DNA of 64,000 nucleotides, taken from positions 205,566 to 269,565 of the forward strand of contig CACIJW010000001.1 of the NCBI GenBank assembly GCA_902587125.1. The letters are read 5' to 3'. The notes under the pieces are model-generated. The model was not told where the DNA came from. It did not search any database and worked only from the letters and a program-made list of their open reading frames with translations. Both the position numbers and the translations under genes were made by a program. The stretch is from an uncultured Bacteroidota bacterium. GTDB taxonomy: Bacteria > Bacteroidota > Bacteroidia > Flavobacteriales > BACL11. How positions within the stretch are numbered: position 1 is the stretch's first letter; each line of letters starts with the position of its first letter. Positions 6,963-46,545 of this stretch are shown piece by piece.

Positions 6963-8291
6963 TCAGATTTCCTTTAAGATCATATCTACAACAAAATCAT
7001 CATCCCATTTTTTTTCTATTTGAGGTAGTTTCATGATTTTTTCCATTATTTGTTCTTGTTTCTTACCAACTTCCCAAGCTGTTGAATACTTGATATTTGA
7101 AAAGCTAACCATACTATACAGAGGTAACCATTTTTCTGGGTGCAATTTTGAGACTTTTTGTTCAATTTTCTTTTGTAATAAAAAATCAGGATCCGCTGTT
7201 TTATCTCTCATGACTATAAAATTGTGCAATGACAGATCTTGCAAACCATCACCCTCTGGCTTTCTATCAATTGAAAATTGATCAAAGCATTTTTCATAAT
7301 TTTCTTTATAGATGTCTAGCATATCTGAAAGTACTCTGCAATCTTCAAAGCCAGCATTCATACCTTGACCATAAAAAGGCACGGTAGCATGAGCTGAATC
7401 ACCAATAAGTAAAACATTTTTTTTGTTCCAGGGGAAGGTTTTAACTATTCCAAGCTCAGAAGTAGGATTGGCCTGCCATTGCTCATAAAGATTGGGAACT
7501 AGTTTAGCAAAGTCCGGAAAATGCTTGTTGAAATAGTGAATTGTTTCTTTCTCAGTACTTAAATTTTCAAATGAATCTTTTCCGCGTTTAGCAGCAAATA
7601 ATGTGCAGGTGAAGCTTCCATCTAAATTAGCAAGAGCTATAACCATAAAATTTCCTCTTGGCCATATATGTAGAGCTTCTTTTTCAATTAAGTAAGAATT
7701 GTTTGGCCCTGATGGTATCAAAAGTTCTTTATAGTCGTACTCTATTTTATTGTAATCATACATATGCCCTAGTTTTTCAACCATTTTAGCTCTTACATTT
7801 GAAAAAGTACCATCTGCACCAACAATAAAATCAGCTACATATGTTTTTTCTTGATCTAGCTGCAAAAATGTAGCTTTTGTATTATTAAAATCTACATCAA
7901 CACATTTTGAATTGAAATGTATTTCAGCGCCATACTTTTCTGCAAGATTTAGCATTAACAAATTAAGCTCTACTCTTGAAACAGAAAAAATTGCCTGATC
8001 AGATTCTCCATATTGTTGAAATGTTAAATTTCCTTTATTATCATGCATAACCCTTCTATACATTGGTATGGCAATTTTTTTAACATACTCGTGAATATCA
8101 GCTTGTTCCAGGGATGTCCAACCTCTTTTAGATAAAGCAAGATTGATAGATTTTCCAGCAGTAATCTTTTGAGTTCTTAAGTCTTTTCTTCTCTCAAAAA
8201 GTTGAACTGAATATCCTTTTTTAATTAGATGAATAGCACACAATGAACCAACTAGGCCAGCACCAATTACTATTACTTTTTTTTCTTTCAT
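6963..8291 (-). CDS. kmo: Kynurenine 3-monooxygenase
   Basis: GAGLVG FAD motif, GKSINLALS, EALHIWPRG, LIGDSAHATVPFYGQGMNAGFED, WLPLYSMVSF. Confidence 0.95.
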   Translation of the reverse strand: MKEKKVIVIGAGLVGSLCAIHLIKKGYSVQLFERRKDLRTQKITAGKSINLALSKRGWTSLEQADIHEYVKKIAIPMYRRVMHDNKGNLTFQQYGESDQAIFSVSRVELNLLMLNLAEKYGAEIHFNSKCVDVDFNNTKATFLQLDQEKTYVADFIVGADGTFSNVRAKMVEKLGHMYDYNKIEYDYKELLIPSGPNNSYLIEKEALHIWPRGNFMVIALANLDGSFTCTLFAAKRGKDSFENLSTEKETIHYFNKHFPDFAKLVPNLYEQWQANPTSELGIVKTFPWNKKNVLLIGDSAHATVPFYGQGMNAGFEDCRVLSDMLDIYKENYEKCFDQFSIDRKPEGDGLQDLSLHNFIVMRDKTADPDFLLQKKIEQKVSKLHPEKWLPLYSMVSFSNIKYSTAWEVGKKQEQIMEKIMKLPQIEKKWDDDFVVDMILKEI

Positions 8292-9538
8292 AATAATTTT
8301 TTTAGCGTTTGATAAAAATTAAATGTATCAGTAAAAGTATTGTATAAAGGAACAGGAGCTATTCTAATTACATCTGGCTCTCTCCAATCTGCTACGATAC
8401 CATTTTCAGTCAAATTATTAAATAGTTTTTTATCATAATTTTTTACTCTTATGGACAATTGACACCCTCTCATTGGGACATCTATAATTTCAATGTTTTT
8501 ATTATCAATGCTTTTTATTAAAAACTCTAAATAATTAGTTAATACTTTTGATTTTTTTATTAAATCATCCATTCCTACTTTGTCAAAGATAGACAGTGAA
8601 GCAAAGACAGGAGCTAGTGAAAAAATTGGTGGATTACTCAACTGCCATCCTTCAGCACTTTTGATTGGTTTAAATTTGTCATCCATTAAGAACCTTTCCT
8701 TTTTATTATGTCCCCACCAACCAGTGAATCTTGGAAGTTCCACATTGTGAAACCTTTCATTTACGAAAGCTCCTGCAATAGCACCAGGTCCTGAGTTTAG
8801 ATACTTGTAAGTGCACCAAACAGCAAAATCGACATTCCACTTGTTCAGCTCTAATTTTACATTTCCAATTGCATGAGCTAAGTCAAAACCAACTACAATT
8901 CCATTCTCATGACCGACCCTTGTGATTTTTTGCATATCAAATAACTGGCCAGTATAATAATTTACACCCCCGATTAAGATTAAAGCAATTTCATTAGAGT
9001 TTTCTTTAATAATTTTCTCAATATCTTCTTGTCTAATAAAATGCTCACCTTTTCTTGGCTCAAGTTTGATTAATGCCTCATCAGCTTTAAATCCATGAAA
9101 TTTAATCTGAGATTCAACTGCATAAATATCGGAGGGGAACGCGTCTTTTTCAATTAAAATTTTAAATTTATTTTTTTCAGGTTTATAAAAAGACACCATC
9201 ATTAAATGAAGATTAACTGTTAAAGTATTCATAGCAATCACTTCACTACTTTTTGCACCAATTAACTTACTGTAGCTTATACTCAACATCTCATGATATG
9301 GAAGCCATGGATTTTTTGCATGAAAATGTCCTTCAACACCATGAGTTTTCCAGTCATCAATTTCCTGAATTATATATTCTTTTGTTTTTTTTGGTTGTAG
9401 TCCAAGAGAATTGCCGCAAAAATATATTAACTCTTTCCCTTGTTTATTCTTGGGTATGAAAAATAAATCTTTATAACTTTTTAGACTATCTTTTTGATCA
9501 AGCTCTTCACAAAATGATTTATCAGTACTATACTTCAT
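8288..9538 (-). CDS. kynU: Kynureninase (probable ATG at 9538)
   Basis: YFCGNSLGLQP, MNTLTVNLH, DLAHAIGN, WCTYKYLNSGPG (PLP Lys), GWWGH; ATGA overlap with kmo. Confidence 0.96.
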   Translation of the reverse strand: MKYSTDKSFCEELDQKDSLKSYKDLFFIPKNKQGKELIYFCGNSLGLQPKKTKEYIIQEIDDWKTHGVEGHFHAKNPWLPYHEMLSISYSKLIGAKSSEVIAMNTLTVNLHLMMVSFYKPEKNKFKILIEKDAFPSDIYAVESQIKFHGFKADEALIKLEPRKGEHFIRQEDIEKIIKENSNEIALILIGGVNYYTGQLFDMQKITRVGHENGIVVGFDLAHAIGNVKLELNKWNVDFAVWCTYKYLNSGPGAIAGAFVNERFHNVELPRFTGWWGHNKKERFLMDDKFKPIKSAEGWQLSNPPIFSLAPVFASLSIFDKVGMDDLIKKSKVLTNYLEFLIKSIDNKNIEIIDVPMRGCQLSIRVKNYDKKLFNNLTENGIVADWREPDVIRIAPVPLYNTFTDTFNFYQTLKKLL

Positions 9539-10328
9539 TAACTTCAAAAATTATTGGTTTACTAGGCGCTGCATCAGAAACAAATGAAGGGGTTTGTATA
9601 TTTAAAAGATATTTTCCATCAATAATATCGTTAGAGACAAATATCATTTCAGTGATAGTTTTTCCTCTTGCGGCCAAATTAAGTTTTTTATTATTTGTTT
9701 CCCAAAAAATATTATGACAAGTTAATTTACCTTCATCTAGTAACCTATCAACAGAAGGAAAATCAACAAGTAAATGTTTTACACCTAACTCAACAATATA
9801 ATTCATTGCTTCTATTGTAAAAAAGGGAGACTCATTACCAGAATATTTTTTTTTCAACTTATTTTCATTATTTGGAACTGTTCTTATGATTAGCCCATCT
9901 AAAAATGAAGTGTCAACACTTGAAAGTTTACTTTCTATTTCTTTTTTTGTTACTACTAAATCATCATTATTTAAGCGCGGTGAATAAGTTTCATTTGTTA
10001 CAGAGGGTGTCAAAGTAATTAAAGTTGCCGGCATAAACATGTCTCTTAATGAATTATTTATGCTAACACGTTCGTCTGTAATATGACCTATACACTCAGT
10101 ATGTGTACCGTTGCAGTGTGGAGTTAAAGTATAGGTTTCAAAATTACATGGACCTCCAAGCCTGGTATCTCCTACGAAACTGTTGTCTTTATATGCAAAA
10201 GAGCTAGCTTGATTAACGTTATAGGTATTTGGTTGCTCGCCGTTAAATTTTAAAGGAATAGATAAATCAGTAAATTTTTTAAAATTTATAAAATAAGATT
10301 TGGCACCAACTTTTATTTCAGCATTCAT
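9528..10328 (-). CDS. kynB: Cyclase-family kynurenine formamidase
   Basis: PHCNGTHTEC metal motif, LLVDFPSVDR, SDAAPS; lies inside the kynurenine cluster. Confidence 0.8.
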   Translation of the reverse strand: MNAEIKVGAKSYFINFKKFTDLSIPLKFNGEQPNTYNVNQASSFAYKDNSFVGDTRLGGPCNFETYTLTPHCNGTHTECIGHITDERVSINNSLRDMFMPATLITLTPSVTNETYSPRLNNDDLVVTKKEIESKLSSVDTSFLDGLIIRTVPNNENKLKKKYSGNESPFFTIEAMNYIVELGVKHLLVDFPSVDRLLDEGKLTCHNIFWETNNKKLNLAARGKTITEMIFVSNDIIDGKYLLNIQTPSFVSDAAPSKPIIFEVNEV

Positions 10329-10344
10329 TTATTATGATTTAATC

Positions 10345-11370
10345 TTAATTGTAATTTAACCAGTTTAAAACATTCTTATGCCAGATGTCTTTACCCTCTT
10401 GTTCTGTAAAGATACCTGTTTCTACAGCATAATCTAGTACCCTTCCTGGGTATGAGGTTCCTACACCCTCCATCTCTCCCAATGGAAATGGATCATCTAA
10501 ACCCATCATTATTTGACTTACTCCTACTCGCTTTTTAAGTAAGTCTAATGTATAAGAATCATGAACTAATGTATCAAAGAATAAATTTTTATGCCCTAGC
10601 GACTTCCTTGGGTCATGTAATTTTTCAAAGATATCAGGACGACCATCATATCCTTGAATTCTTCTGCCGTAATTCGCAATGCCCAGCATCCCTCCATGAG
10701 CAAAACAAATTCTTATTTTTGGAAATCGATTAGGGAGATCTCTTAAAGTGTATATATGTAAAGTATCAGCGCATTGAGCCATCATCCATATTAAGTGAAA
10801 CCTCCAATACTCATTTTTTAAAGCTATCATTTTTTCTCCATCATAAGGATGAATTTGAATTGCTAGCTCATGTTTATTTGCAAGTTCGTATATAGGATCC
10901 AAGTGCTTATCTGCAGTAGATAACCATTCACCTTTTTTGTTTAAAAAATGTGTTGGAAGACATAAAACTTTTAAATCTAGTTCATTAACACATCTATCAA
11001 TTTCTCTAAATGCATGTTCCATGTATAATGGCTGTACAACAAATCCACAGGTAAAAATTTCTGGAAAATCACTTTGAACTGAAGCATTAAAATCGTTTTG
11101 AAAAGTAATACCGTCTATACAATCTTGTTTTTCCCAACCATTACAATAAAGCTGAGAAAGGCATAACATTACTCCATGATCAATTTTGTTTTGTCTCATC
11201 CACTCTATCTTTTCCTTTAAAAAAAAACTTGATCCAGTTATTGGTCTAGACCAATTTCCTTGCCTCATAAATTTTTTATCATTGTCAATCCAAAACAATT
11301 TCTTGTCTTTCATGAACTTTGGAATCTGATTAGGTTCCGGAAGTATATGTCCATGTCCATTAATTCTCAT
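10345..11370 (-). CDS. 2-amino-3-carboxymuconate-6-semialdehyde decarboxylase (ACMSD, amidohydrolase family)
   Basis: HGHILP (HxH), FAHGG, DTLVHD, MGLDDPFPLGE; directly downstream of 3-HAO. Confidence 0.88.
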   Translation of the reverse strand: MRINGHGHILPEPNQIPKFMKDKKLFWIDNDKKFMRQGNWSRPITGSSFFLKEKIEWMRQNKIDHGVMLCLSQLYCNGWEKQDCIDGITFQNDFNASVQSDFPEIFTCGFVVQPLYMEHAFREIDRCVNELDLKVLCLPTHFLNKKGEWLSTADKHLDPIYELANKHELAIQIHPYDGEKMIALKNEYWRFHLIWMMAQCADTLHIYTLRDLPNRFPKIRICFAHGGMLGIANYGRRIQGYDGRPDIFEKLHDPRKSLGHKNLFFDTLVHDSYTLDLLKKRVGVSQIMMGLDDPFPLGEMEGVGTSYPGRVLDYAVETGIFTEQEGKDIWHKNVLNWLNYN

Positions 11371-11381
11371 ACAAAAGAATT

Positions 11382-11915
11382 TTATTCACTAACATATCTC
11401 TTATCAGCTTCCATTACTTCACCAGTTTTTGGGCACGTTCTCAATTTTTCACTTGAGTAAAATCTTTTAAAAACTGGCAAAAAGTCTTTTTCGATATTTG
11501 TTAAATGAAAGTACTCCTCGTAAAGTAATTCATTAGCAGTATCGGAGAACCACATCAACCCATCCCTATCATCTTTCTTTCTTTTTCTTTCAATTACTAA
11601 ACCTATTGAGCCTTCAGATCTAACTGGTGAGTGAGGTACTTTTGGTGGTAGTAAAAACATTTCTCCTTCATTAATTGGAACTTCAACAAGTTTACCATCT
11701 TGTTGAGTTTTAACAACAATACTTCCTTCAATCTGATAAAAAAGCTCTTCTGTTTCATTATAATGATAATCTTTCCTTGCGTTTGGTCCAGCCACAATCA
11801 TTACTATATAATCTTCGGATTCAACATATAGATTTTTGTTTCCCACAGGTGGTTTTAAGAGGTGTCTATTTTCATCAATCCATTTTTGTAAGTTAAAAGG
11901 TTTTTTAATGTTCAT
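11382..11915 (-). CDS. nbaC: 3-hydroxyanthranilate 3,4-dioxygenase
   Basis: LKPPVGNK, GPNARKDYHYNETEELFYQ, PHSPVR cupin motifs. The rubredoxin-like Cys pairs of some bacterial HAOs are not intact (only CPKTG). Confidence 0.95.
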   Translation of the reverse strand: MNIKKPFNLQKWIDENRHLLKPPVGNKNLYVESEDYIVMIVAGPNARKDYHYNETEELFYQIEGSIVVKTQQDGKLVEVPINEGEMFLLPPKVPHSPVRSEGSIGLVIERKRKKDDRDGLMWFSDTANELLYEEYFHLTNIEKDFLPVFKRFYSSEKLRTCPKTGEVMEADKRYVSE

Positions 11916-11925
11916 AATAAATGTT

Positions 11926-12342
11926 TTAAATTGTTGCTATTACTTTTAATTCTATTGCTATTGGTGTCGGTAACGACTTTATTTCTATTGTTGTTCTAGT
12001 AGGCTGATTATCTGAAAAATAATCAGCATAAATTTTATTGTACTTTTTAAAGTCATCTTTCATGTTAGTCAGAAAAACCTGTACATCAATTATCTTTTCC
12101 CAGCATGAGCCACAGTCCTCTAAAATAACTTTAATATTGTTAAAGACAGAGTGACACTGCTTTTCAATATCGTAATCTACTATTTTGCCTTCATTATTTA
12201 GAGTTACTCCAGGAATATCTTTGCTATCTAATGTTCGTGGCCCTACTCCAGATAAAAAGAGTAAGTTTCCAAACTTTCTTGCATGTGGATATAGCCCAAC
12301 AGCCTGAGGTGCTCTACTGGAATTTAATTTTTCTCCGTTCAT
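11926..12342 (-). CDS. RidA family protein, probable 2-aminomuconate deaminase
   Basis: GLYPHA, LFLSGVGPR, PTRTT, IAIELK; between HAO and the semialdehyde dehydrogenase. Confidence 0.8.
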   Translation of the reverse strand: MNGEKLNSSRAPQAVGLYPHARKFGNLLFLSGVGPRTLDSKDIPGVTLNNEGKIVDYDIEKQCHSVFNNIKVILEDCGSCWEKIIDVQVFLTNMKDDFKKYNKIYADYFSDNQPTRTTIEIKSLPTPIAIELKVIATI

Positions 12343-12345
12343 AAA

Positions 12346-13788
12346 TTAAATTTTTACACAAATATTTTTTGGTTCAGTAAAAAACTTAAGTGAATTAAAA
12401 CCTCCCTCTCTTCCCACACCAGAGTTTTTCATTCCTCCAAACGGGATTCTTAAATCTCTTAACAGCCATGTATTAATCCAAATAACACCTGAGTCAATTT
12501 TAGCAGCCACTCTATGTCCTCTACTAATATCTTTAGTAAAAATAGATGCTGACAATCCAAACTCACTAGAGTTAGCCATCATTATTACATCATCTTCACT
12601 TTCAAAAGGGATTAGTGTTACAACAGGACCAAAAATTTCTTCATTGTTAATTGAACAATCATATGCTAAATTTTCAAAAACTGTCGGTTGAATATAATAA
12701 CCATTTTTAAGCTCTCCCTCCAGTATCAATCTTTCTCCTCCACAAAGTAAAATACCACCTAATTTTTTGGCTTCATTAATTTTTAATAAAATTTTGTTCA
12801 TATGCTCCTCTGAAACGACAGCACCTAAATGGCTATTAGAACTTTTTGGGTCACCAACAATGAGTTTTTTTGCTTTATCAACTAACGCAGATTTAAATTT
12901 TTCATAAATTTTATTTTGCACAAATACTCTTGAGCCACACAAACAAATCTGACCTTGATTAGTAAATGCAGCTCTTGAAGCAGTACTTACTGCTTTGTCA
13001 AAGTCACAGTCATCGAAGATTATATTTGGATTTTTACCACCAAGTTCTAGTGATAGTTTTTTAAAGTACGGTGCTGTTATTTTTGAGATGTGTTTTCCTG
13101 TGTCACTTCCTCCTGTAAATGAAACAATTGGCACATCCTGATGAGTTGTTAGAGCATCCCCAAGCTTTTCTCCTCTACCATGTACTATATTAAGAACTCC
13201 TTTTGGGAAATTAATTTCTTTACAGATCTTACTGAGTAAATATGCAGTCATAGGCGTTATCTCAGAGGGCTTAGCTACAACTGTATTTCCTGTAGCTAAA
13301 GCAGGTGCAATTTTCCAAGTTAGTAGGTATAATGGTAAATTCCAAGGAGAAATACATGCAGCAACTCCAATTGGAACTCTGAGTGTATAATTAATTGCTT
13401 CTCCGTCCATCTCATGAACATCAGAGCTATCATGTAAAATAGCGCCAGCAAAAAATCTCAAGTTAGCTGAGGCTCTTGGTATATCAACTTTAGCTGCCAA
13501 GCTTAAAGGTTTACCGTTATCTCTACTTTCTGCTGCTACCAACATATCAAAATTTTCTTCAATAGCATCAGCTAATTTGTTCAAAATATCTGATCTTTCT
13601 TGCTTTGTAGTTTTACTCCAAAAAGAGTATGCAACCTTAGCAGATTTAACAGCTTCATTAACATCATCTGCACAAGAGTCGGGAACTAAACTATATGCTT
13701 TACCACATGATGGATCTATATTTTCAATATAGATTTTTGAGCTTGGTTCAATTAGTTCTCCGTTTATATAATTTAAAATTTTTTCCAT
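12346..13788 (-). CDS. 2-aminomuconic 6-semialdehyde dehydrogenase (ALDH8A1-like)
   Basis: SPWNLPLYLLTWKIAPALA, FTGG, LELGGKNP, NQGQICLCGSR, EEIFGPV; operon context. Confidence 0.88.
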   Translation of the reverse strand: MEKILNYINGELIEPSSKIYIENIDPSCGKAYSLVPDSCADDVNEAVKSAKVAYSFWSKTTKQERSDILNKLADAIEENFDMLVAAESRDNGKPLSLAAKVDIPRASANLRFFAGAILHDSSDVHEMDGEAINYTLRVPIGVAACISPWNLPLYLLTWKIAPALATGNTVVAKPSEITPMTAYLLSKICKEINFPKGVLNIVHGRGEKLGDALTTHQDVPIVSFTGGSDTGKHISKITAPYFKKLSLELGGKNPNIIFDDCDFDKAVSTASRAAFTNQGQICLCGSRVFVQNKIYEKFKSALVDKAKKLIVGDPKSSNSHLGAVVSEEHMNKILLKINEAKKLGGILLCGGERLILEGELKNGYYIQPTVFENLAYDCSINNEEIFGPVVTLIPFESEDDVIMMANSSEFGLSASIFTKDISRGHRVAAKIDSGVIWINTWLLRDLRIPFGGMKNSGVGREGGFNSLKFFTEPKNICVKI

Positions 13789-14567
13789 TACAAGCTAGTA
13801 GTTCTTCCACCGTCAACTGGCAGATTAATACCATTAATGTAGCTAGCTGATGGACTACATAAAAAAGCAATAGCATCCGCGACCTCAACCGCTTCTCCAA
13901 ATCTATTAGCTGGCACGCTGGAAATCATTTTTTTAGTAATCTCTTCGACACTCTTATTTAAGGTTTTAGATTTTGTCTCAATTAAAGTTTTTAATCTATT
14001 TGTATCAGTAAAGCCTGGTAAAACGTTATTAACTGTGATTCCATGTTCAGCCAACTCAAAAGAAAGAGTCTTCGCCCAATTTGCAACTGCTGCTCTAATT
14101 GTATTTGAAACACCCAAGCCAGGAATGGGAGATTTAACAGATGTTGAAATAATATTTACAATTCTTCCAAACCCTTCTTTTTTCATGCCCTCAACAACAT
14201 GCTGAACAAGAATATGATTGTTAATTAAATGCATTTCGAAAGCCTTATTAAATTCATTTAGATTTGCATCAATGAGCTTGCCTGAAGCAGGGCCACCGGT
14301 ATTATTTATTAATATATGAATAGGTGATTTAATCTTTTTAATTTCTTGTTCGAGCCTGCCGGAGTTTTGAAAATCAATACATAAATAATTATGAACTTGG
14401 CCCTTGGTATTATCTAAACGCTGTGATATTTGTTTAAGTTTTGTTTCGTTTCTGGCAAGCAAATAAATATTTGCACCAAGTTTAGCTAGCACTTCAGCAG
14501 TTGCCAAACCTATTCCTTGAGTAGATCCACAAACAACTGCATTCAAATTGGTTAATTCTAAATTCAT
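13788..14567 (-). CDS. Atypical short-chain dehydrogenase/reductase (SxxxR in place of YxxxK)
   Basis: CGSTQGIG, INNTGGP, VSNTIR at the catalytic position, NNVLPG, GINLPVDGG. Confidence 0.9.
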   Translation of the reverse strand: MNLELTNLNAVVCGSTQGIGLATAEVLAKLGANIYLLARNETKLKQISQRLDNTKGQVHNYLCIDFQNSGRLEQEIKKIKSPIHILINNTGGPASGKLIDANLNEFNKAFEMHLINNHILVQHVVEGMKKEGFGRIVNIISTSVKSPIPGLGVSNTIRAAVANWAKTLSFELAEHGITVNNVLPGFTDTNRLKTLIETKSKTLNKSVEEITKKMISSVPANRFGEAVEVADAIAFLCSPSASYINGINLPVDGGRTTSL

Positions 14568-14569
14568 AA

Positions 14570-15649
14570 TTAATTACTAAATCCTAGTTTGCTTTTAATT
14601 TTATCTGGTAATTCTGGCATAAAAGATCTTGAAAGCAGCAAAGTTGATATCTTTGAAATATCGTTAAATATTCTGTTCTGATAAACAGTATTTTTGAGAT
14701 AATCTGCTCCGTCACTACCTCCGGTTCCAATTTTTTTACCTAACATTTTATCAACCATTTGAGCATGTCTAAATCTCCAATTTGAAATGATATGATCAAT
14801 ATCTAATAGATTTTTAAGAAATCTGTAAGGCATGTGAAGTATAGGTTGGTCCTTGTATTGGAAAATAAGCAGTGCTGATATTAAAGCATTCTTTGAAAAA
14901 GCGTTTGAGTTTTTTTCTTCAAAGCTAGCTTTTGATACTATCTCTTTATAATATTCTTTTGATCCCTCCAACATTTTGATCCTAATGTTCTTTTCGTTGT
15001 CCGTGAGAATATCACTGGACTTAATACTATTCATTTCTTTACTCATCATATTTTCAATTGCTGTAGTGTAATGTTCCACAAAATCAAAATCCTCGTAATT
15101 GACAAATGGATTTCTATTTAACCATTTTTCAACTAAATCAAAAATTGATTGTTGATCTTCTAATGTCAAGATTTCTTTTTTCTCTTCTGCTGAAAACTGA
15201 TCATGATATGGACAGTTTCCAAAAGAATGTCTTTGATTAATTTTCAATCCAAGCATAACTTCGATTTTTCTAAACTGATGACTTTGAAAGCCTGATGCTG
15301 GCGAAAGATAGTCTCTAAAATCAAGAAAGTCGATTGAAGTCATTGTTTCTAATACATCAATCTGTTTAACTAGCAAGTTCAATATTTCTTTTATCCGATC
15401 CGTTCTTTTTACAACTTTGATAATCTCTTTTTCATCAATTTTTTCGTCTTTGATAGTGTCTTTGACTGATTTGATCTCGTGAATAATTTGTTTAAACCAG
15501 AGCTCATAAGCTTGATGAATAATTATAAACAACATTTCGTCATGTGACTCATCACCTAATTCTTTGCTCATTGGAAACTGAGCATGAAGAATTTTATCTA
15601 GCTTTAAGTAATTTTGATAATGTAGGGCTGTTTTTTTTAAATCTACCAA
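14570..15649 (-). CDS. kynA: Tryptophan 2,3-dioxygenase (long form, TTG start)
   Basis: YLKLDKILHAQ, HDEMLFIIIHQAYELWFKQ, FRDYLSPASGFQSHQFR, WRFRHAQMV, GTGGSDG. Confidence 0.96.
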   Translation of the reverse strand: MVDLKKTALHYQNYLKLDKILHAQFPMSKELGDESHDEMLFIIIHQAYELWFKQIIHEIKSVKDTIKDEKIDEKEIIKVVKRTDRIKEILNLLVKQIDVLETMTSIDFLDFRDYLSPASGFQSHQFRKIEVMLGLKINQRHSFGNCPYHDQFSAEEKKEILTLEDQQSIFDLVEKWLNRNPFVNYEDFDFVEHYTTAIENMMSKEMNSIKSSDILTDNEKNIRIKMLEGSKEYYKEIVSKASFEEKNSNAFSKNALISALLIFQYKDQPILHMPYRFLKNLLDIDHIISNWRFRHAQMVDKMLGKKIGTGGSDGADYLKNTVYQNRIFNDISKISTLLLSRSFMPELPDKIKSKLGFSN

Positions 15650-15681: not shown

Positions 15682-16488
15682 TTAGATTTCAAAACCATTT
15701 AGGATAAAAAGTATTGTAGGCATGAGTATAAATATTCCCTCAAACAAAAATGAACATTTTTGTGATGTAAATTGATTGCTTTTTAAGAACAAAAATACAG
15801 ACAGCAAAATCGTAGTAATCAAGAAAGTAAGAAAGAATTCTAAATCAACATAATTAAAATGCCAAATTATGAATGTTATGAGAGTTGAAATTGATGATAA
15901 TATAATAGATAATATTTTTGACTTTTGAATTCCTAGCTTTATTGGAATAGTTACAAGTTTAGACTTATCAAACTCTATATCTCTTATATCAAAAGGAATC
16001 GTTATCGCTAAGACTTTCAAATAGATTGCTAAGAAAATAAGTATTATTTTTTCGTCTATTGCAACCAATAATTCGACTGCAGGTAAAAGAACTGAAAAGT
16101 ATGACCAAGAAAATGCAATCATAAATATTTTAAAATACTTAATCTTTCTTAAATATGAATAAAAAAAGATGAATGGAGTTAACACAATAAAGCTTATTGC
16201 GGAAATTAATTTTAAATTAAACAACAAATAAATTAGAATAAAGAGAAGTAATATAAAGAGTAATTTGTTAAGACTAAATTTATTCATCGAAATAAAGCCC
16301 TGATTATCATTTTCTTTTAAATTGTTTATAAAATTATAGGCTAAAAAACAAGAAAAAAAGGAAAATGATAAAATTTTAAATGAAAAAAATTTTAATCCTA
16401 TCATAACCAGTAAACATAGAAAAGAAAAGGAAAAAGAAACCCAAAAATGATAGCGAACTAAATATTTAAAAAAAGATTTAAAAAACAA
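15682..16488 (-). CDS. UbiA prenyltransferase-like integral membrane protein
   Basis: About 8 TM helices; PFDIRDIEFD Asp-rich motif followed by LVTIP; the first Asp-rich motif is degenerate. Confidence 0.6.
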   Translation of the reverse strand: MFFKSFFKYLVRYHFWVSFSFSFLCLLVMIGLKFFSFKILSFSFFSCFLAYNFINNLKENDNQGFISMNKFSLNKLLFILLLFILIYLLFNLKLISAISFIVLTPFIFFYSYLRKIKYFKIFMIAFSWSYFSVLLPAVELLVAIDEKIILIFLAIYLKVLAITIPFDIRDIEFDKSKLVTIPIKLGIQKSKILSIILSSISTLITFIIWHFNYVDLEFFLTFLITTILLSVFLFLKSNQFTSQKCSFLFEGIFILMPTILFILNGFEI

Positions 16489-30608: not shown

Positions 30609-31487
30609 CTAAAAGTAAAAAAAATGAAGTTTGTAACTTGGTGCAAATCTAATTGTTGGGCTTGGTAATTTAAAATAATCAATATAATAAATTATGTTTT
30701 TGACAAATTTATTATTTGATTTTCTAAAAATATGCTTTAGGTTATAATCCAAAGAAATATAATATTCTCTCAAACCGCCATCGATAGAGGAATTATTTAG
30801 AAACTGACTGTCATCTAGTCCTGTTCCAATAGCTAAATTGAAGTTTTTAAAAAATTCGAAATCTAATATCTTATTTAGTTTACATGTAAGCCAATAAGTT
30901 TGATTTACATAATCATTAAAAAACTCATAGCTGGATGCTAATTTTCCCCTTTCTTTTTCTAGCTGCCAATATTTATTACTTCTTTTAAAATAACTAAACT
31001 TAATATCTATATAGTTCAACTCGTTTGATTTCTTCTTTATATAATGAAAATAACTTCCCGCAGCTCCTGAGATTAAATCGTAAATACTGAAACCATAATT
31101 AGGAGAATAGGCATCTTTTACTTCAATAACTGACTGTATTAGTATTGAATTTCTTAGTGCCAATATCAAGGGCTTTTCTGAACCAGCCCACAAAAAGGCA
31201 TTATTAAACAATTTGTTAGTAAAATAGCCTCCATAAAAATGACCTACTTTATCAAGATTTTTAGCATAAGCAAAATCGTTATTAGAACTAAATGAGAATT
31301 GATTATTATTTTCACTCCACCAAACTCTATCTAAATAAAGATATGTAGCTCCACCTACCAAAAAAAAAGATGAATTCACAATACTTTCTTTTTTATTTTT
31401 TTCTAAATCATCATTAAAAAAAAGTTCTGACCCTGAAAGTGAATATGTAATGAAATTAACAACAAAAATTAAATATATATAATTCAA
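30609..31487 (-). CDS. DUF2279-like (YfiM-related) membrane/exported protein
   Basis: DKVGHFYGGY, EVKDAYS..YGFS..DL, DYVNQTYWL, REYYISLD, KLPSPT. Confidence 0.7.
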   Translation of the reverse strand: MNYIYLIFVVNFITYSLSGSELFFNDDLEKNKKESIVNSSFFLVGGATYLYLDRVWWSENNNQFSFSSNNDFAYAKNLDKVGHFYGGYFTNKLFNNAFLWAGSEKPLILALRNSILIQSVIEVKDAYSPNYGFSIYDLISGAAGSYFHYIKKKSNELNYIDIKFSYFKRSNKYWQLEKERGKLASSYEFFNDYVNQTYWLTCKLNKILDFEFFKNFNLAIGTGLDDSQFLNNSSIDGGLREYYISLDYNLKHIFRKSNNKFVKNIIYYIDYFKLPSPTIRFAPSYKLHFFYF

Positions 31488-38011: not shown

Positions 38012-38019
38012 TATTTTTG
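38012..38019 (+). promoter_or_regulatory. -7 element TAttTTTG upstream of gcdH
   Basis: Exact motif 12 nt before ATG 38032. Confidence 0.55.
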
Positions 38020-38031
38020 AAAAAAAAATAC

Positions 38032-39210
38032 ATGAAACCAGATTTATTTACATCTCCCGATTACTTTCATCTTAATGAGCTCCTTACTGAGGAACATAGA
38101 TTAATAAGAGACACATCTAGAGAATGGGTTAAAAAAGAAGTTTCTCCCATTATCGAAGAAGCTTGTCAAAAAGCTAAATTTCCTGATCAAATTTTGAAAG
38201 GCTTAGCAGAAATTGGAGCATTTGGTCCATATATTCCAGCTGAGTATGGAGGTGCCGGATTAGATCAAGTCTCATATGGCTTAATTATGCAAGAGTTAGA
38301 AAGAGGAGATAGTGGAATACGATCAACCGCTTCCGTCCAATCATCACTTGTCATGTATCCTATCTATAAGTATGGTAATGAAGAACAAAGAAAAAGATTT
38401 TTACCAAGGCTTGCCAGCGGCGAGCTAATAGGATGTTTTGGTTTAACTGAAGCTGATCATGGATCTAATCCTGGTGGCATGACAACAAATTTTAAAGATT
38501 GTGGAGATTACTTTTTACTTAATGGCGCTAAACTTTGGATATCTAATTCCCCATTTGCAGATATAGCTATCGTTTGGGCTAAGAATGAAGAAGGCAGAAT
38601 AAAAGGGCTGATTGTTGAAAGGGGTATGGATGGCTTTACAACGCCGGAAACTCATGGAAAATGGAGCCTAAGAGCATCGGCAACTGGCGAGCTTGTTTTT
38701 GACAATGTAAAAGTTCCAAAGCAAAATTTACTACCAAACAAAGATGGGCTTGGAGCACCTCTTGGATGCCTAGACTCTGCTAGATACGGAATTGCGTGGG
38801 GTGCAATTGGAGCTGCAATGGATTGCTACGACACAGCGCTAAGATACTCCAAGGAAAGACACCAGTTCGGTAAACCAATTGGTTCATTTCAACTGCAACA
38901 GAAAAAACTTGCTGAAATGATAACTGAAATAACTAAAGCTCAATTTTTGACTTGGAGGCTTGGGGTACTTAAAAATGAAGATCGAGCTAGCACTGCTCAA
39001 ATCTCAATGTGCAAAAGAAACAATGTTGACATGGCTTTGAAAATTGCAAGAGAATCTAGACAAATTTTAGGAGGTATGGGTATAACTGGAGATTATCCAA
39101 TAATGAGACACATGATGAATTTAGAGTCTGTTGTTACTTATGAGGGAACTCATGATATTCACCTATTAATAACTGGACTAGATATTACAGGGCTTAATGC
39201 GTTCAAATAA
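38032..39210 (+). CDS. gcdH: Acyl-CoA dehydrogenase, glutaryl-CoA dehydrogenase type (probable ATG at 38032)
   Basis: ELERGDSGIRSTASVQSSLVMYPI (GCDH-type Arg), GCFGLTE..HGSNP, WISNSP, ARYGIAWGA, TYEGTHDIH. Confidence 0.85.
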   Translation: MKPDLFTSPDYFHLNELLTEEHRLIRDTSREWVKKEVSPIIEEACQKAKFPDQILKGLAEIGAFGPYIPAEYGGAGLDQVSYGLIMQELERGDSGIRSTASVQSSLVMYPIYKYGNEEQRKRFLPRLASGELIGCFGLTEADHGSNPGGMTTNFKDCGDYFLLNGAKLWISNSPFADIAIVWAKNEEGRIKGLIVERGMDGFTTPETHGKWSLRASATGELVFDNVKVPKQNLLPNKDGLGAPLGCLDSARYGIAWGAIGAAMDCYDTALRYSKERHQFGKPIGSFQLQQKKLAEMITEITKAQFLTWRLGVLKNEDRASTAQISMCKRNNVDMALKIARESRQILGGMGITGDYPIMRHMMNLESVVTYEGTHDIHLLITGLDITGLNAFK

Positions 39211-43231: not shown

Positions 43232-43275
43232 GTTTTTGATAAATAATTTTTTAATAAAATAGACTCATAAAATTG

Positions 43276-43283
43276 TATTTTTG
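43276..43283 (+). promoter_or_regulatory. -7 element TAttTTTG, 4 nt before ATG 43288
   Basis: TATTTTTG-ctgt-ATG. Confidence 0.6.
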
Positions 43284-43287
43284 CTGT

Positions 43288-46200
43288 ATGAAAAATTCCG
43301 TAATTATTGAAAAGATAAATTTATTTAGAAATAAGTTTTATTTGAATCTAATAATAAAGGGGATTTTACTTTCAATTTTTTTTTCAATTAATGGTTTTTT
43401 ATTAATTGTTTTCCTGGAGCATTTGGTTTGGTTTGACTCAAAATTTAGACAATTTATTTTTTGGGGGTTCTGCATTTCTAGTTTAATATTTATAACATAC
43501 AATATCATTATACCATTTCTTAAGATTTATAGCTTTGGTAATATAATTTCAAATAAACAAGCTGCTAATATTATTGGAGAATACTTTAGAGATATTGATG
43601 ATAAGCTTCTGAATTTATTGGAACTTGAAGAGATTGATGATAAGCATTCTGACTTACTAATTGCCAGTATTAATCAAAAAACAGAACATTTAAATAAATT
43701 TAAATTTGAGGATGTAATAAATTTTAGTTCTAATAAAAAGTATCTAAAGCTACTAATTATACCCACTACAATAATAATATTGATTTTTATCACTGGAAAT
43801 AATCAAATTATTAGTGAGAGTTCAGCTCGAGTCATAAATTACAATGAAACATTTACTAAGCCCGCCCCTTTTAAATTTATTTTAAAAAACAAGAAACTTG
43901 ATTTGATAGAAAACCAAAAACTTAAAGTTCTTCTAGAACTTAAAGGTTCTAATTTACCTAATGAGGTGTTCATTAGAGTAGCTGACAGAGACCTTTTGAT
44001 GTCAAAAGCTGAAAGCTCTGATTTTTATTCTTACGAGTTTTACAATATAAAAGAATCATTCAACTTTAACTTTTATTCCAATGGGTTCAAATCTAAAAAA
44101 TATAAAATTGAAGTAAAGAAAAGACCTCTCATGCTAGAATTCATGATTAGTTTTTCATATCCGAAGCATACTTTCAAAAAAGATGATTCTCAAAAAAATA
44201 TTGGAGAAATTTTTGTGCCAGAAGGAACTAAGACAAAATGGTCATTTAAAACAAAAAATGTTGATGAATTGATTTTTGCTCTTGATAATGAAATAGAAAG
44301 TAAAAGTTTTAATAATGATGATTTTGAAATTCAAAAAACTTTAATGAATTCTGGCAATTACAAATTAAAGCTTGTTAATAAGAACGGGGTTACTGATTCT
44401 AATTATTATTCAATAAGACTTTTGAAAGATGAATATCCAAAAATTAATGTTGAAGTTAATTTTGATTCAACTAATAATTTATTTGTCTATAATGGTTCGG
44501 CTTTTGACGATTATCAAATTTCAGATATCAAAATCAAGTATTTGAAAAATAAAAAAATAATAAATGAAACATCATTTAAGACAAACAAACAGCGTGAAGA
44601 GTTTTTTGAATATGAGATTAATACAAATAATATTAGCGAATTCGAATATGATAAATTGTATTTTGAAGTGTGGGATAATGATGGTGTAAATGGATTTAAA
44701 TCAGCTAAAACTGAAGTTTTTAGCCTTAATAGTATAAGCAAAACAGATGCAATCTCTAATAGGAACCAAAAAAATAACGAGCTTAAATCAACAATGCAAT
44801 CTAGCTTTGAAACCATTAAAGAAATGAACGAAGAAATTGAAAAGATCAAGCGCTCATTAATCAATAATAAAAGGCTTGATTGGAATCAAAAAGAAAATGT
44901 TAAAGATCTATTAAAAAAACAAATGAAGCTTGAGAACGAAATTCAAAAATCTAAAAATCTTCTTAACGATTTAATTGAAAAAAATGAAATTCTTAGCCCA
45001 GAAATTATTGAAAAGCAGAAGCTACTAAATGAGATGATGGAAAAGGTTTTTGACGAAGAGCTTTTAAAGATGATCGATGAAATGCAAAAAGATTTTGAAA
45101 ATTTAAATAAAGAGGAGATTCAAAAACTCTTAGAAAATTTAGAGGACCAAAATTTAAACATTGAAGAAGAGCTTGACAGAGAAATTGAGTTGTTCAAACA
45201 AATGGAAATTGAGCAAAGATTATCTGAATTAAAGCAAAAAATACAAGAAATTAAAAGCAAACAAGACAGTTTGACCAATAATAAAAATATAGATCAAAAC
45301 AGCCTAGAAAAACAAAATGATATAAAAAAAGATTTTGATGAGTTAAAAAAAGACATTGATGAAATGCAAAATCTAAATGACTCTTTAGAAAATCCTAATA
45401 ATTTTGAAAACACTGAAGAATTGGAAAAAAAGATTGATGAAAGTATTGAAGAGAGCATAAAGAAAATGAAACTAGGTAATAAAAAAAGCTCAAAAAAGAG
45501 TCAAAAAAATACTAGTGATAAAATGCAAGACTTAGAGGATCAACTATCTATGATGCTCTCTAGCTGTAAAGGGAATCAAAATTTTGAAAACCTTGAGACA
45601 CTTAGACAAATTCTTGAGAATCTCATATCTATTTCTTTCTCTCAAGAGGAACTAATTCTAAAAACTAAAGAAACAAATAAAAACAGTTCAGAATTCATAC
45701 AAATAATAAGAACTCAGAAAAAAATTAAGGATGACTCAGAAATTGTCAAAGACTCTCTGCTCGCACTTTCTAAAAGAGTTATTGAGATAGAGTCAATTGT
45801 AAACAAAGAAATAAATAAAATAAATAGCTACTTATCGAAATCTATTAATTCGTTAGAGGATAGGGATATAAGAAAAGCAAATATTTCTCAACAATTTGTG
45901 ATGACTTCAGTAAATAATCTTGCCCTTTTGTTAGATGAATCACTCAAACAAATGCAAAAGCAATTAGCATCGCAGACGCCTGGAAATAAGCAATGTAATA
46001 ATCCTGGAAGCGGACCACCTTCGCTATCACAACTCAAACAAATGCAGAAAAAATTATTGGAAGAGATGAAAAATGGAGAAAATGGTAAAAATGGATCTAA
46101 ATCACTTGGAGAATCTCTTTCAAAAAAACTTATGCAACTTGCACAATTACAACAAGAGGCTAAAGAAAATTTACTAAAAATGAGAGATGAGCTAGGAAAT

Positions 46201-46545
46201 GGAAAAAATAAAGGTGATATAGATAAGCTATTAGACGATATGGAAAAAAATAATGATGATATAATTTTTAACAAAATATCTCAAAAAACAATAGATAGAC
46301 AAAATAAAATATTATCGAGGTTACTAGATTTTGATGAAGCTGAAAGAGAGCAAGGTGAAGACGACAAAAGAGAATCCTTAGAATGGATAATGAAAAATGA
46401 CATTGAAACTATAGATGAAGAAATCTCCAGACAAAAGAAAAAAAATATTTCTGAGGAAATTTTAAAAAGAAACAATGTTAAACTAAACCCTTTCTATAAA
46501 AGAATAAATACAGATTATTTTAATAAAATTTCTAAGGATGATTAG
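43288..46545 (+). CDS. Large membrane-anchored coiled-coil protein (DUF4175-like), probable ATG at 43288
   Basis: Three N-terminal TM helices, beta-rich middle (DEYP, DDY, YFEVWDNDGVNG.KS), long Q/K/E/N coiled coils, RQNKILSRLL; usual upstream neighbour of ybeY. Confidence 0.8.
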   Translation: MKNSVIIEKINLFRNKFYLNLIIKGILLSIFFSINGFLLIVFLEHLVWFDSKFRQFIFWGFCISSLIFITYNIIIPFLKIYSFGNIISNKQAANIIGEYFRDIDDKLLNLLELEEIDDKHSDLLIASINQKTEHLNKFKFEDVINFSSNKKYLKLLIIPTTIIILIFITGNNQIISESSARVINYNETFTKPAPFKFILKNKKLDLIENQKLKVLLELKGSNLPNEVFIRVADRDLLMSKAESSDFYSYEFYNIKESFNFNFYSNGFKSKKYKIEVKKRPLMLEFMISFSYPKHTFKKDDSQKNIGEIFVPEGTKTKWSFKTKNVDELIFALDNEIESKSFNNDDFEIQKTLMNSGNYKLKLVNKNGVTDSNYYSIRLLKDEYPKINVEVNFDSTNNLFVYNGSAFDDYQISDIKIKYLKNKKIINETSFKTNKQREEFFEYEINTNNISEFEYDKLYFEVWDNDGVNGFKSAKTEVFSLNSISKTDAISNRNQKNNELKSTMQSSFETIKEMNEEIEKIKRSLINNKRLDWNQKENVKDLLKKQMKLENEIQKSKNLLNDLIEKNEILSPEIIEKQKLLNEMMEKVFDEELLKMIDEMQKDFENLNKEEIQKLLENLEDQNLNIEEELDREIELFKQMEIEQRLSELKQKIQEIKSKQDSLTNNKNIDQNSLEKQNDIKKDFDELKKDIDEMQNLNDSLENPNNFENTEELEKKIDESIEESIKKMKLGNKKSSKKSQKNTSDKMQDLEDQLSMMLSSCKGNQNFENLETLRQILENLISISFSQEELILKTKETNKNSSEFIQIIRTQKKIKDDSEIVKDSLLALSKRVIEIESIVNKEINKINSYLSKSINSLEDRDIRKANISQQFVMTSVNNLALLLDESLKQMQKQLASQTPGNKQCNNPGSGPPSLSQLKQMQKKLLEEMKNGENGKNGSKSLGESLSKKLMQLAQLQQEAKENLLKMRDELGNGKNKGDIDKLLDDMEKNNDDIIFNKISQKTIDRQNKILSRLLDFDEAEREQGEDDKRESLEWIMKNDIETIDEEISRQKKKNISEEILKRNNVKLNPFYKRINTDYFNKISKDD

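Follow-up and report, generated by a model that had tools for sequence, protein, structure and literature searches.

A nine-gene operon for tryptophan degradation in a marine flavobacterium was found to include an SDR gene whose product is a plausible NADPH-dependent 2-oxohex-3-enedioate (4-oxalocrotonate) reductase, i.e., a candidate enzyme of the lower kynurenine pathway that would act after ring opening. Judged by analogy with characterised relatives and by gene context, this assignment stands at about an even chance. More tentatively, at somewhat short of an even chance, the clade is proposed to convert the deaminated product of ring cleavage to 2-oxoadipate, a reaction for which no organism has an assigned gene.

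Operon organization and transcription

The window, i.e., the whole stretch of 64,000 nucleotides that was analysed, carries all nine operon genes on the minus strand. The first gene encodes tryptophan 2,3-dioxygenase (TDO; 14570..15649, (-); PF03301, 3.6e-90) and is separated by 2 nt from the candidate SDR gene (13788..14567, (-); 259 aa, ATG start), which was characterised from the ORF list, Pfam, an AF2 model, fold matches, and synteny. The TAA stop of the SDR gene and the ATG of the following gene overlap by a single base, 13788 (TAATG on the minus strand), as the sequence-only reading had stated. This following gene encodes an ALDH of the 2-aminomuconate/2-hydroxymuconate semialdehyde dehydrogenase type (AMSDH; 12346..13788, (-); 480 aa; TIGR03216, 6e-165, under the cut-off) with 42-46% identity to the ALDHs encoded in HAAO clusters of Cupriavidus and Rhodococcus. 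It is followed by a RidA-family protein, the presumed 2-aminomuconate deaminase (11926..12342, (-); PF01042, 5.9e-26), which has PDB 6izh ("2-aminomuconate deaminase") among its best matches (1e-19) and shows 34-39% identity to the RidA proteins encoded in HAAO clusters of proteobacteria and actinobacteria. Then come 3-hydroxyanthranilate 3,4-dioxygenase (HAAO; 11382..11915, (-); NF009763, 257 bits, cut-off 220) and ACMS decarboxylase (ACMSD, Amidohydro_2; 10345..11370, (-)), the latter assigned by PDB matches and nearer to the animal than to the Pseudomonas enzyme (human ACMSD 3.5e-28, Pseudomonas ACMSD 4.5e-11). The remaining genes encode a cyclase-family kynurenine formamidase (KFA; 9528..10328, (-); PF04199, 2.1e-14), bacterial KynB being a member of the cyclase family, kynureninase (KYNU; 8288..9547, (-); TIGR01814, 450 bits, cut-off 246), and the FAD enzyme kynurenine 3-monooxygenase (KMO; 6963..8291, (-); PF01494), the KYNU-KMO pair being kept in related loci. 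Since these eight genes all map to known steps, the SDR gene is, as claimed beforehand, the only operon gene without an assigned step.

Transcription of the operon was observed in seawater, with RNA contigs bridging both the SDR/ALDH and the TDO/SDR junctions, and RNA contig depth upstream of TDO drops to 0 (runs X1 and X2). Scanning the operon for promoters and terminators was uninformative for this AT-rich Bacteroidota genome, because the counts were not above those in shuffled sequence. Outside the operon, at a distance of 22 kb, lies a gene for glutaryl-CoA dehydrogenase (GCDH; 38017..39210, (+)), an enzyme that acts two steps past 2-oxoadipate. Its product matched human GCDH (PDB 1sir) at 1.5e-125 and 422 bits, as against about 250 bits to other acyl-CoA dehydrogenases. 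In other genomes GCDH was not found clustered with the SDR gene, and only locus L038 has an acyl-CoA dehydrogenase, 36% identical to GCDH.

Fold and active-site motif of the SDR

Membership in the SDR superfamily was judged by a Rossmann fold with an N-terminal Gly motif, a length near 250 residues, and a Pfam match that exceeds the gathering threshold. The protein matched adh_short_C2 (PF13561; 9e-40, 137 bits, cut-off 27) and adh_short (PF00106; 8e-35, 120 bits), and its AF2 model (pLDDT 95.6) showed the beta/alpha alternation of SDRs. The Rossmann glycine motif G14-S-T-Q-G18-I-G20 (14508..14528, (-)) is intact (pattern G14-x3-G18-x-G20, in VVCGSTQGIG), and its three glycines are invariant in alignment A1. 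At E <= 1e-5, SDR domains were the only Pfam domains found, and no aspartate-dehydrogenase fold (ASPDH/AMR) was among them. No NCBIfam model reached its cut-off, the best being PRK08339 with 185 bits against 339. Rosetta-stone fusions were sought among relatives and none was informative; a single relative was long (P0134, 428 aa), and since its N-terminal extension resembles no operon protein, it was taken as an over-called ORF.

In place of the classical YxxxK, the protein has S154-N-T-I-R158 (14094..14108, (-)), as determined by sequence reading and alignments. In the alignment with AerF, S154 and R158 pair with a Ser and an Asn, and these same AerF residues pair with Tyr and Lys of Aquifex FabG (2p68), with which a joint alignment concurs. 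The positions of the N-S-Y-K tetrad thus correspond to H113, S141, S154, and R158, and only S141 is retained, so that the protein has neither the tetrad nor the YxxxK of classical, FabG-type ketoreductases. The sequence-only reading had noted the kept Rossmann motif and SNTIR in place of YxxxK, both of which were borne out by the ORF and by the alignments with AerF and 2p68. It had also called the motif atypical, which holds with respect to YxxxK; it is, however, no local oddity, the S...R pair being kept in 115 of the 127 full-length sequences that represent clusters at 50% identity. An E. coli FabG sequence served for comparison in this count; the Tyr/Lys equivalence rests on the AerF, 2p68, and joint alignments.

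The protein was assigned to the S-N-x-x-R subfamily (5VA8, 1O5I, 2Z1N), whose defining motifs, i.e., an Arg after beta-2, NNxGGP after beta-4, S-N-x-x-R on helix alpha-5, and PGxxxTxR after beta-6, were all found. Residues R39 (the Arg after strand beta-2), N89, G92, P93, S154, N155, R158, P184, G185, T189, and R191 are invariant in alignment A1, and their conservation in distant members is at least 92% except for N155 (0.90). From the invariant R39 and the NADP(H) in 5VA8, 5VPS, 5IDY, and 6JHA, the cofactor is probably NADP(H). R158, R191, and R255 are predicted to bind carboxylates. The clade-specific residues H59, H84, H113, N117, T142, T156, and R255 are common to orthologues with and without linkage to kynurenine genes, which are intermixed in the tree. 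A neighbour-joining (NJ) tree placed AerF and BacG outside the S-N-x-x-R group; this deep placement carries little weight because a single outgroup was used. One "YK" sequence within the clade of the same tree (P0147) seems to be chimeric.

Since the S...R motif marks a very large family that occurs in many other contexts, the motif alone is no pointer to the substrate. Distant S-x-x-x-R members have as neighbours genes for extradiol dioxygenases and for proteins of the FAH and DHDPS families, i.e., settings of 2-oxo-acid metabolism and ring cleavage.

Characterised and structural relatives

The best structural matches were AerF (6jha/6jhb, TM 0.93), BacG/YwfH, and Burkholderia NADP(H)-SDRs. 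AerF shares the SDR fold with 35% identity over the full length, and like the operon protein it carries Ser where the catalytic Tyr would be and lacks the Lys. Its crystals contain NADPH and 4-hydroxyphenylpyruvate, a 2-oxo acid (6jha/6jhb). AerF differs in its motif (S-G-V-V-N instead of S-N-x-x-R), in a Gly at the classical Ser141 position, and in its genomic setting, where it is encoded alongside AerD and AerE in a non-ribosomal peptide cluster rather than in a catabolic operon. The natural substrate of AerF is presumably a conjugated 2-oxo acid as well, albeit a cyclic dienyl-pyruvate instead of a linear C6 dicarboxylate. BacG/YwfH of Bacillus subtilis (PDB 3U49/3U4C), an NADPH reductase of bacilysin biosynthesis, has a much similar fold at 29% identity and likewise lacks Tyr and Lys (N-S-M-M-N), but it is biosynthetic, has another motif, and has no kynurenine genes nearby. 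According to work of the Walsh laboratory, BacG reportedly acts on an unsaturated 2-oxo acid by conjugate reduction.

Residues R39, G92, P147, R191, and D252 are common to the S-N-x-x-R family, AerF, and BacG and are absent from FabG, and in all three an SDR fold of the NADPH-binding type lacks both Tyr and Lys on its active-site helix. With 29-35% identity and a differing motif, the operon protein is not an orthologue of AerF or BacG, and the shared chemistry is an analogy because of the low identities (35% and 29%) and the different motif residues. Neither a prephenate decarboxylase (AerD/BacA) nor a cupin isomerase (AerE/BacB) was found in the window or among the recurrent neighbours of 80 orthologue loci. 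AerF is described in the literature as an NADPH-dependent double-bond reductase. The earlier suggestion that loss of the Tyr fits non-carbonyl chemistry gains from the Tyr-less AerF and BacG, the former a C=C reductase.

The same NNxGGP, S-N-x-x-R, and PGxxxTxR motifs are present in Burkholderia 5VA8/5VPS/5IDX, Thermotoga TM1169 (1O5I), and Aeropyrum APE0912 (2Z1N), which are 32-37% identical to the operon protein (Foldseek alignments) and lack the clade residues H113, N117, T142, T156, and R255. NADP(H) is bound in the Burkholderia crystals. We take these entries to correspond to CDD cd05344 "BKR_like_SDR_like". They are structural-genomics depositions, for which a literature search found no function.

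Synteny across orthologues

For 80 species-level SDR orthologues (50-63% identity) from Bacteroidota, some Gammaproteobacteria, Ignavibacteria, and one Phycisphaeraceae MAG, at least one kynurenine gene was found within 10 kb in 55/80 loci and directly adjacent (within 500 bp) in 47/80, the adjacent gene being HAAO (26), AMSDH (25), ACMSD (8), TDO (4), or KYNU (2). The remaining 25/80 were unlinked to kynurenine genes. In some loci (L131, L015, L028, and L047), the SDR gene occurs with HAAO, KYNU, and KMO, and neither AMSDH nor ACMSD was found within 10 kb. Apart from kynurenine genes, no neighbour recurred in the 80 loci beyond lineage synteny: the most frequent, a 213-aa O-methyltransferase-like gene (by sequence reading), was confined to Flavobacteriaceae synteny, and further recurrent ones were unrelated (GDH, read by eye from the sequence, and DUF4286, GNAT, OmpA, and AbiH, by Pfam).

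In the reverse direction, 80 HAAO-centred metagenome loci were inspected. The SDR gene was beside HAAO only where other kynurenine genes co-occur, and beside none of 26 isolated HAAO genes; its presence was associated with that of AMSDH/ACMSD (Fisher p = 0.0018), and where AMSDH lies near HAAO, the SDR gene was adjacent in 7/8 loci. Linkage across taxa, together with the junction-spanning RNA contigs, places the gene in the kynurenine operon, and synteny conserved across phyla supports its being functionally part of the lower kynurenine branch.

These data bear on whether the SDR is an unrelated passenger of the operon, e.g., a FabG-like 3-oxoacyl-ACP reductase as in JGI annotations. Relatives are indeed labelled "3-oxoacyl-ACP reductase" in their source annotations, and the unlinked orthologues would fit. 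However, FabG models of NCBIfam all scored far under their cut-offs (about 135 bits vs about 297), catalytic Tyr and Lys are missing, the linkage is kept from Bacteroidota to Ignavibacteria, Gammaproteobacteria, and the Phycisphaeraceae MAG despite differing gene orders, and the 1-nt overlap and the RNA contigs over both flanking junctions tie the gene to its neighbours. A passenger is hence considered very improbable.

A second alternative is a carbonyl reductase that forms a 2-hydroxy acid from 4-oxalocrotonate or 2-oxoadipate by acting on the 2-oxo group, or that detoxifies the reactive aldehydes ACMS or AMS by turning them into alcohols. Carbonyls are the substrates of most SDRs, and the tightest neighbours, HAAO and AMSDH, make and consume aldehydes. 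Moreover, in three loci of one lineage (L162, L165, and L173), the slot after RidA is filled by a Zn-dependent enzyme of the cinnamyl-alcohol-dehydrogenase type, which normally reduces carbonyls; an aldehyde-reducing type of enzyme thus takes the place of the SDR. On the other side, conserved substitutions affect three tetrad residues (the Asn, the Tyr that serves as general acid, and the Lys), the known Tyr-less relatives are ene-reductases, and a 2-hydroxy acid or alcohol would have no obvious onward route. Carbonyl reduction therefore appears rather unlikely.

Alternative lower routes

The meta-pathway of 4-oxalocrotonate decarboxylase (4-OD), hydratase, and aldolase (xylI/J/K, nbaG-type) starts from the same presumed substrate, 2-oxohex-3-enedioate, once a RidA-type deamination has taken place, but uses other proteins and yields pyruvate and acetaldehyde (HAAO clusters of Burkholderiales and Rhodococcus). 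In the HAAO clusters of Cupriavidus and Rhodococcus, RidA is accompanied by 4-OD, hydratase, and aldolase, and no such SDR is present. Conversely, no homologues of the pWW0 4-OD/hydratase, aldolase, acetaldehyde dehydrogenase, or 4-OT were found in the window or in 79/80 SDR loci, the exception being Mesonia (L009), whose kynurenine cluster contains a 4-OD-like FAH gene in addition to the SDR. RidA was found in 20/23 SDR clusters that carry AMSDH and ACMSD. The linkage to kynurenine genes, the missing rival route, and the Tyr-less relatives favour the idea of the sequence-only reading that the SDR, with the ALDH and RidA, would give 2-oxoadipate.

In animals, the same gap after AMSDH is filled by an NAD(P)H-dependent reduction of another kind. 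Human ASPDH reduces 2-aminomuconate with NAD(P)H to L-2-aminohex-3-enedioate, not 2-oxoadipate, according to a June 2026 preprint (bioRxiv 10.64898/2026.06.05.730449), which leaves open the steps from this product to 2-oxoadipate. The earlier statement that the animal reductase gene is not firmly assigned is thereby outdated. ASPDH/AMR has a fold unrelated to that of the SDR and acts before deamination, with no release of ammonia. On some alphaproteobacterial plasmids an ASPDH-like gene adjoins HAAO, and those clusters have neither RidA nor such an SDR; among the 80 HAAO-centred loci, no ASPDH-like gene was found.

As an analogue of animal ASPDH, the SDR might reduce 2-aminomuconate itself (imine/enamine) to 2-aminohex-3-enedioate or 2-aminoadipate, with RidA in a competing or clean-up role only. 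This would be exactly the NAD(P)H reaction of the human enzyme (bioRxiv 10.64898/2026.06.05.730449), and RidA went undetected in 6/27 SDR clusters. SDR-type imine reductases are known, noroxomaritidine/norcraugsodine reductase being among the PDB sequence matches, and some distant members adjoin DHDPS-family, racemase, and amidohydrolase genes (imino/amino acids). Against this, RidA accompanies the SDR in most full clusters, as it does 4-OD in Cupriavidus and Rhodococcus, the alphaproteobacterial HAAO clusters of the ASPDH type are without RidA, and the closest characterised relatives act on C=C by a 2-oxo acid, not on C=N. We regard direct 2-aminomuconate reduction as unlikely, if less so than carbonyl reduction.

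Proposed function

In the proposed scheme, tryptophan would be converted to 3-hydroxyanthranilate via TDO, KFA, KMO, and KYNU, HAAO would yield ACMS, and ACMSD would yield 2-aminomuconate semialdehyde, from which the ALDH would make 2-aminomuconate. RidA would deaminate the latter to 2-oxohex-3-enedioate (4-oxalocrotonate). As a 2-oxohex-3-enedioate reductase, the SDR would reduce this alpha,beta-unsaturated 2-oxo acid with NADPH, the hydride being added at C4 and a proton thereafter at C3, and 2-oxoadipate would result; substrate, product, and regiochemistry are predicted from relatives and context. 2-Oxoadipate could then enter the route via glutaryl-CoA to crotonyl-CoA. A literature search retrieved no paper naming a gene for a 4-oxalocrotonate or 2-oxohex-3-enedioate reductase, and a search for a bacterial reductase of this step, or for fitness data, gave nothing useful. 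For fungi, reduction versus decarboxylation of 2-oxohex-3-enedioate is left open in the literature.

Significance

Within the kynurenine pathway, what becomes of 2-aminomuconate is the one stretch that is still ill defined. If the proposed function is true, Bacteroidota and other carriers would have a closed route from kynurenine to glutaryl-CoA. This would be a third solution, next to 4-OD in Burkholderiales and Rhodococcus and to ASPDH in animals and perhaps some alphaproteobacteria. With its clear and testable prediction, a bacterial gene would complete the tryptophan-to-acetyl-CoA map of abundant marine and soil Bacteroidota and would help to search for the corresponding activity in fungi or animals. 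The assignment would also correct the common "FabG" mis-annotation and provide a way into the function of an SDR family that has several orphan crystal structures; it would be the first function for the very large S-N-x-x-R family, as ene-reductases acting on unsaturated 2-oxo acids from ring cleavage.

Operon organization and expression

The SDR gene, encoding a 259-aa short-chain reductase (13788–14567, minus strand), lies in a tightly packed block of nine genes, all on the minus strand, with intergenic gaps of −20 to +16 nt. Besides the SDR, the block comprises the kynurenine-pathway genes TDO (14570–15649), an ALDH of the AMSDH type (12346–13788), RidA, the presumed 2-aminomuconate deaminase (11926–12342), HAAO (11382–11915), ACMSD (10345–11370), a cyclase-type formamidase (KFA; 9528–10328), kynureninase (KYNU; 8288–9547), and KMO (6963–8291). 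As the sequence-only reading had noted, the SDR is the sole operon gene without a pathway step, the other eight being assigned by family, and it overlaps the ALDH gene by 1 nt, stop and start codon having one base in common (TAATG). The window has a GC content of 29.6% and matches a contig of assembly GCA_902546675.1; on a complete chromosome of 2.1 Mb, the same operon contains an SDR orthologue with 69% identity.

In four seawater metatranscriptomes, RNA contigs spanned about 7.5–15.6 kb of the block and bridged the SDR/ALDH, TDO/SDR, RidA/ALDH, and KFA/ACMSD junctions, which argues that the operon is expressed in situ, with the caveat that DNA can be present in metatranscriptome contigs. In two of the four runs, RNA contig depth dropped to zero upstream of TDO, where a UbiA-like prenyltransferase gene (15682–16488, minus strand) is located at a distance of 32 nt, a position kept in three relatives (L089–L091); this gene may thus lie outside the operon transcript.

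TDO was of the long form, matching PF03301 end to end and the 264-aa bacterial NCBIfam model in part only. ACMSD resembled the human enzyme (3.5e-28) much more closely than the Pseudomonas one (4.5e-11), and related clusters of other taxa carried another ACMSD type (25–39% identical). These features fit earlier proposals of lateral transfer of the pathway. Elsewhere in the window, three long ORFs of 1090, 425, and 292 aa (43273–46545 and 49849–51126, plus strand; 30609–31487, minus strand) had no Pfam match at 1e-8; their neighbours were housekeeping and polysaccharide-biosynthesis genes.

Active site and structural relatives

The protein was assigned to the SDR superfamily by Pfam, and no curated NCBIfam model matched it at its cut-off. 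Alignments confirmed an intact Rossmann glycine motif and a replaced YxxxK motif, with S154 at the catalytic Tyr position, R158 at the Lys position, and H113 at the tetrad Asn position. Across 28 sequences (41–56% identity), S141, S143, S154, N155, R158, R39, N89, G92, P93, P184, G185, T189, and R191 were invariant. The family comprised 590 clusters at E ≤ 1e-30, and of 127 full-length sequences representing 50%-identity clusters, 115 kept the S...R pair. This conservation indicates an alternative active site and not decay.

The AF2 model was confident (pLDDT 95.6), and its best structural matches comprised Microcystis AerF (TM 0.93), which was crystallised with NADPH and 4-hydroxyphenylpyruvate, orphan Burkholderia SDRs (NADP(H) bound), YwfH/BacG, TM1169, and APE0912. 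At the YxxxK position, AerF has S-G-V-V-N and BacG N-S-M-M-N, compared to S-N-T-I-R in the SDR; R39, G92, P147, R191, and D252 are common to AerF, BacG, and the S-N-x-x-R family, but not FabG. BacG reduces a C=C bond, and AerF is described in the literature as an NADPH-dependent reductase of double bonds. Every characterised relative near the family is therefore Tyr-less and C=C-reducing, in line with the earlier suggestion that Tyr loss goes with non-carbonyl chemistry, by analogy at 29–35% identity, not orthology.

Synteny of SDR orthologues

An alignment-based scan using one genome per species yielded 80 orthologues (50–63% identity), mostly from Bacteroidota, but also from Ignavibacteria, Gammaproteobacteria (Wenzhouxiangella, Lysobacter, Dyella, Methylocaldum), and one Phycisphaeraceae MAG. 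The expected linkage to kynurenine genes was recovered: at least one was present in the flank at 55 of 80 loci, and within 500 bp at 47 of 80. The adjoining gene was mainly HAAO (26) or AMSDH (25), and no other neighbour family recurred beyond single lineages at these loci. Gene orders included a divergent HAAO-ACMSD/SDR-AMSDH-RidA type, KYNU-KMO-RidA-AMSDH-SDR-HAAO-ACMSD in Flavobacteriaceae, and the window's own order in Methylocaldum; such differing orders argue that the linkage is selected rather than inherited synteny. At some loci, the SDR accompanied HAAO, KYNU, and KMO, and the surrounding 10 kb contained neither AMSDH nor ACMSD. Unlinked orthologues shared the clade-specific residues of linked ones, and the two interleave in the tree. 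In the reverse sample of 80 HAAO-centred metagenome loci, the SDR stood beside AMSDH in seven of the eight loci with AMSDH near HAAO and beside none of 26 isolated HAAO genes; its presence was associated with that of AMSDH/ACMSD (Fisher p = 0.0018).

Distant plasmid-borne S-x-x-x-R members (35–40% identity) were located beside FAH-family proteins and a dicarboxylate symporter (Priestia), an extradiol dioxygenase, FAH proteins, and a hydroxylase (Rhodococcus BG43), a VOC dioxygenase and a monooxygenase (Bradyrhizobium), or hpaD, dienelactone hydrolase, and FAH (Thioclava). Many alphaproteobacterial members overlapped a DHDPS-family gene. Among the 40 best plasmid hits, at least 10 showed such an overlap, and on plasmid loci L081–L083, L086, and L088 distant S-x-x-x-R members adjoined FAH-family, DHDPS-family, and extradiol-dioxygenase genes. 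Other contexts were an acyl-CoA dehydrogenase with ETF (Agrobacterium vitis) and a phenylacetate-CoA ligase family gene, TTT-family binding protein, quinone oxidoreductase, and amidohydrolase (Variovorax). As a pattern only, the ring-cleavage and 2-oxo-acid contexts would fit a family that acts more generally on unsaturated 2-oxo acids.

Alternative modules following AMSDH

Three alternative modules follow AMSDH: the SDR, the 4-oxalocrotonate decarboxylase (4-OD) route, and a possible ASPDH type. The window and 79 of 80 SDR loci lacked homologues of the pWW0 decarboxylase/hydratase, aldolase, acetaldehyde dehydrogenase, and tautomerase, the exception being Mesonia, where a 4-OD-like gene accompanies the SDR. 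In this Mesonia aestuariivivens locus (L009, 5799–8408), the 4-OD-like gene belongs to the FAH family and lies inside the kynurenine cluster, in which an AbiH-like abortive-infection gene separates RidA from AMSDH. The HAAO clusters on plasmids of Cupriavidus and Rhodococcus, in contrast, combine RidA, HAAO, ACMSD, and AMSDH with the decarboxylase/hydratase/aldolase route and have no S-N-x-x-R SDR. RidA accompanied the SDR in 20 of 23 SDR clusters having AMSDH and ACMSD, as expected from the sequence-only reading. Since RidA accompanies both the SDR and 4-OD, the SDR would act on the deaminated product 2-oxohex-3-enedioate, and direct reduction of 2-aminomuconate is unlikely.

Alphaproteobacterial HAAO clusters differ in that an "aspartate dehydrogenase" gene adjoins HAAO and RidA is missing (L092, Shinella plasmid NZ_CP132312.1, 9001–10373; L093, Ruegeria plasmid NZ_CP031947.1, 7021–9543). 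Bacteria may have a kynurenine module of the ASPDH type; prokaryotic ASPDH has been treated as a true aspartate dehydrogenase (bioRxiv 10.64898/2026.06.05.730449). Both loci also carry a DHDPS-family gene, an SSADH-like ALDH, and a LysR regulator (plus kynureninase in Shinella); ACMSD, RidA, and 4-OD are all missing within 9 kb.

One lineage (L162, L165, L173) has an aldehyde-reducing-type Zn-ADH and no SDR, the Zn-ADH standing after RidA in L162 and L173. If it were a functional replacement, this would point to carbonyl chemistry; set against the C=C chemistry of the Tyr-less relatives, carbonyl reduction by the SDR appears quite improbable. In all three clusters, this cinnamyl-alcohol-dehydrogenase-type gene is followed by DUF1697, which recurs in kynurenine clusters (L173, 1865–3597; L162, 6307–7631; L165, 2–1421; L037, 7242–7766; L021, 6884–7384). 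In a RidA-HAAO-ACMSD cluster on a Caballeronia plasmid (L094, 10581–11294), a different 237-aa SDR, also without the catalytic Tyr (L-S-A-S-K), directly follows ACMSD, with mhpD, FAH, and acetaldehyde dehydrogenase genes in the same region.

At a distance of 22 kb from the operon, the window encodes an orthologue of glutaryl-CoA dehydrogenase (GCDH; 38017–39210, plus strand; human GCDH E 1.5e-125, other acyl-CoA dehydrogenases scoring about 250 bits). Its presence would fit further conversion of 2-oxoadipate; GCDH also serves lysine catabolism.

Predicted function

The earlier premise that the animal step has no firmly assigned gene has been superseded: in humans, ASPDH forms L-2-aminohex-3-enedioate by reducing 2-aminomuconate, with no release of ammonia, and fungi use a RidA-type deaminase, and the animal route from L-2-aminohex-3-enedioate to 2-oxoadipate was left open (bioRxiv 10.64898/2026.06.05.730449). 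In Aspergillus, the step following 2-oxohex-3-enedioate was likewise left open in the literature, and our literature search found no paper naming a bacterial reductase for 2-oxohex-3-enedioate to 2-oxoadipate.

The earlier observation on the SDR was confirmed, and its interpretation as a 2-oxoadipate-forming enzyme was supported in part: the lower-kynurenine role stood, through synteny, and the animal premise fell. Very probably, the gene encodes a reductase dedicated to the lower kynurenine pathway. It would most likely, at about an even chance, be an NADPH-dependent 2-oxohex-3-enedioate ene-reductase forming 2-oxoadipate; the main rivals are direct reduction of 2-aminomuconate, which is unlikely, and carbonyl reduction, which is slightly less likely still. 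As such, the SDR is a candidate for a new function among Tyr-less SDRs of the AerF/BacG-like kind.
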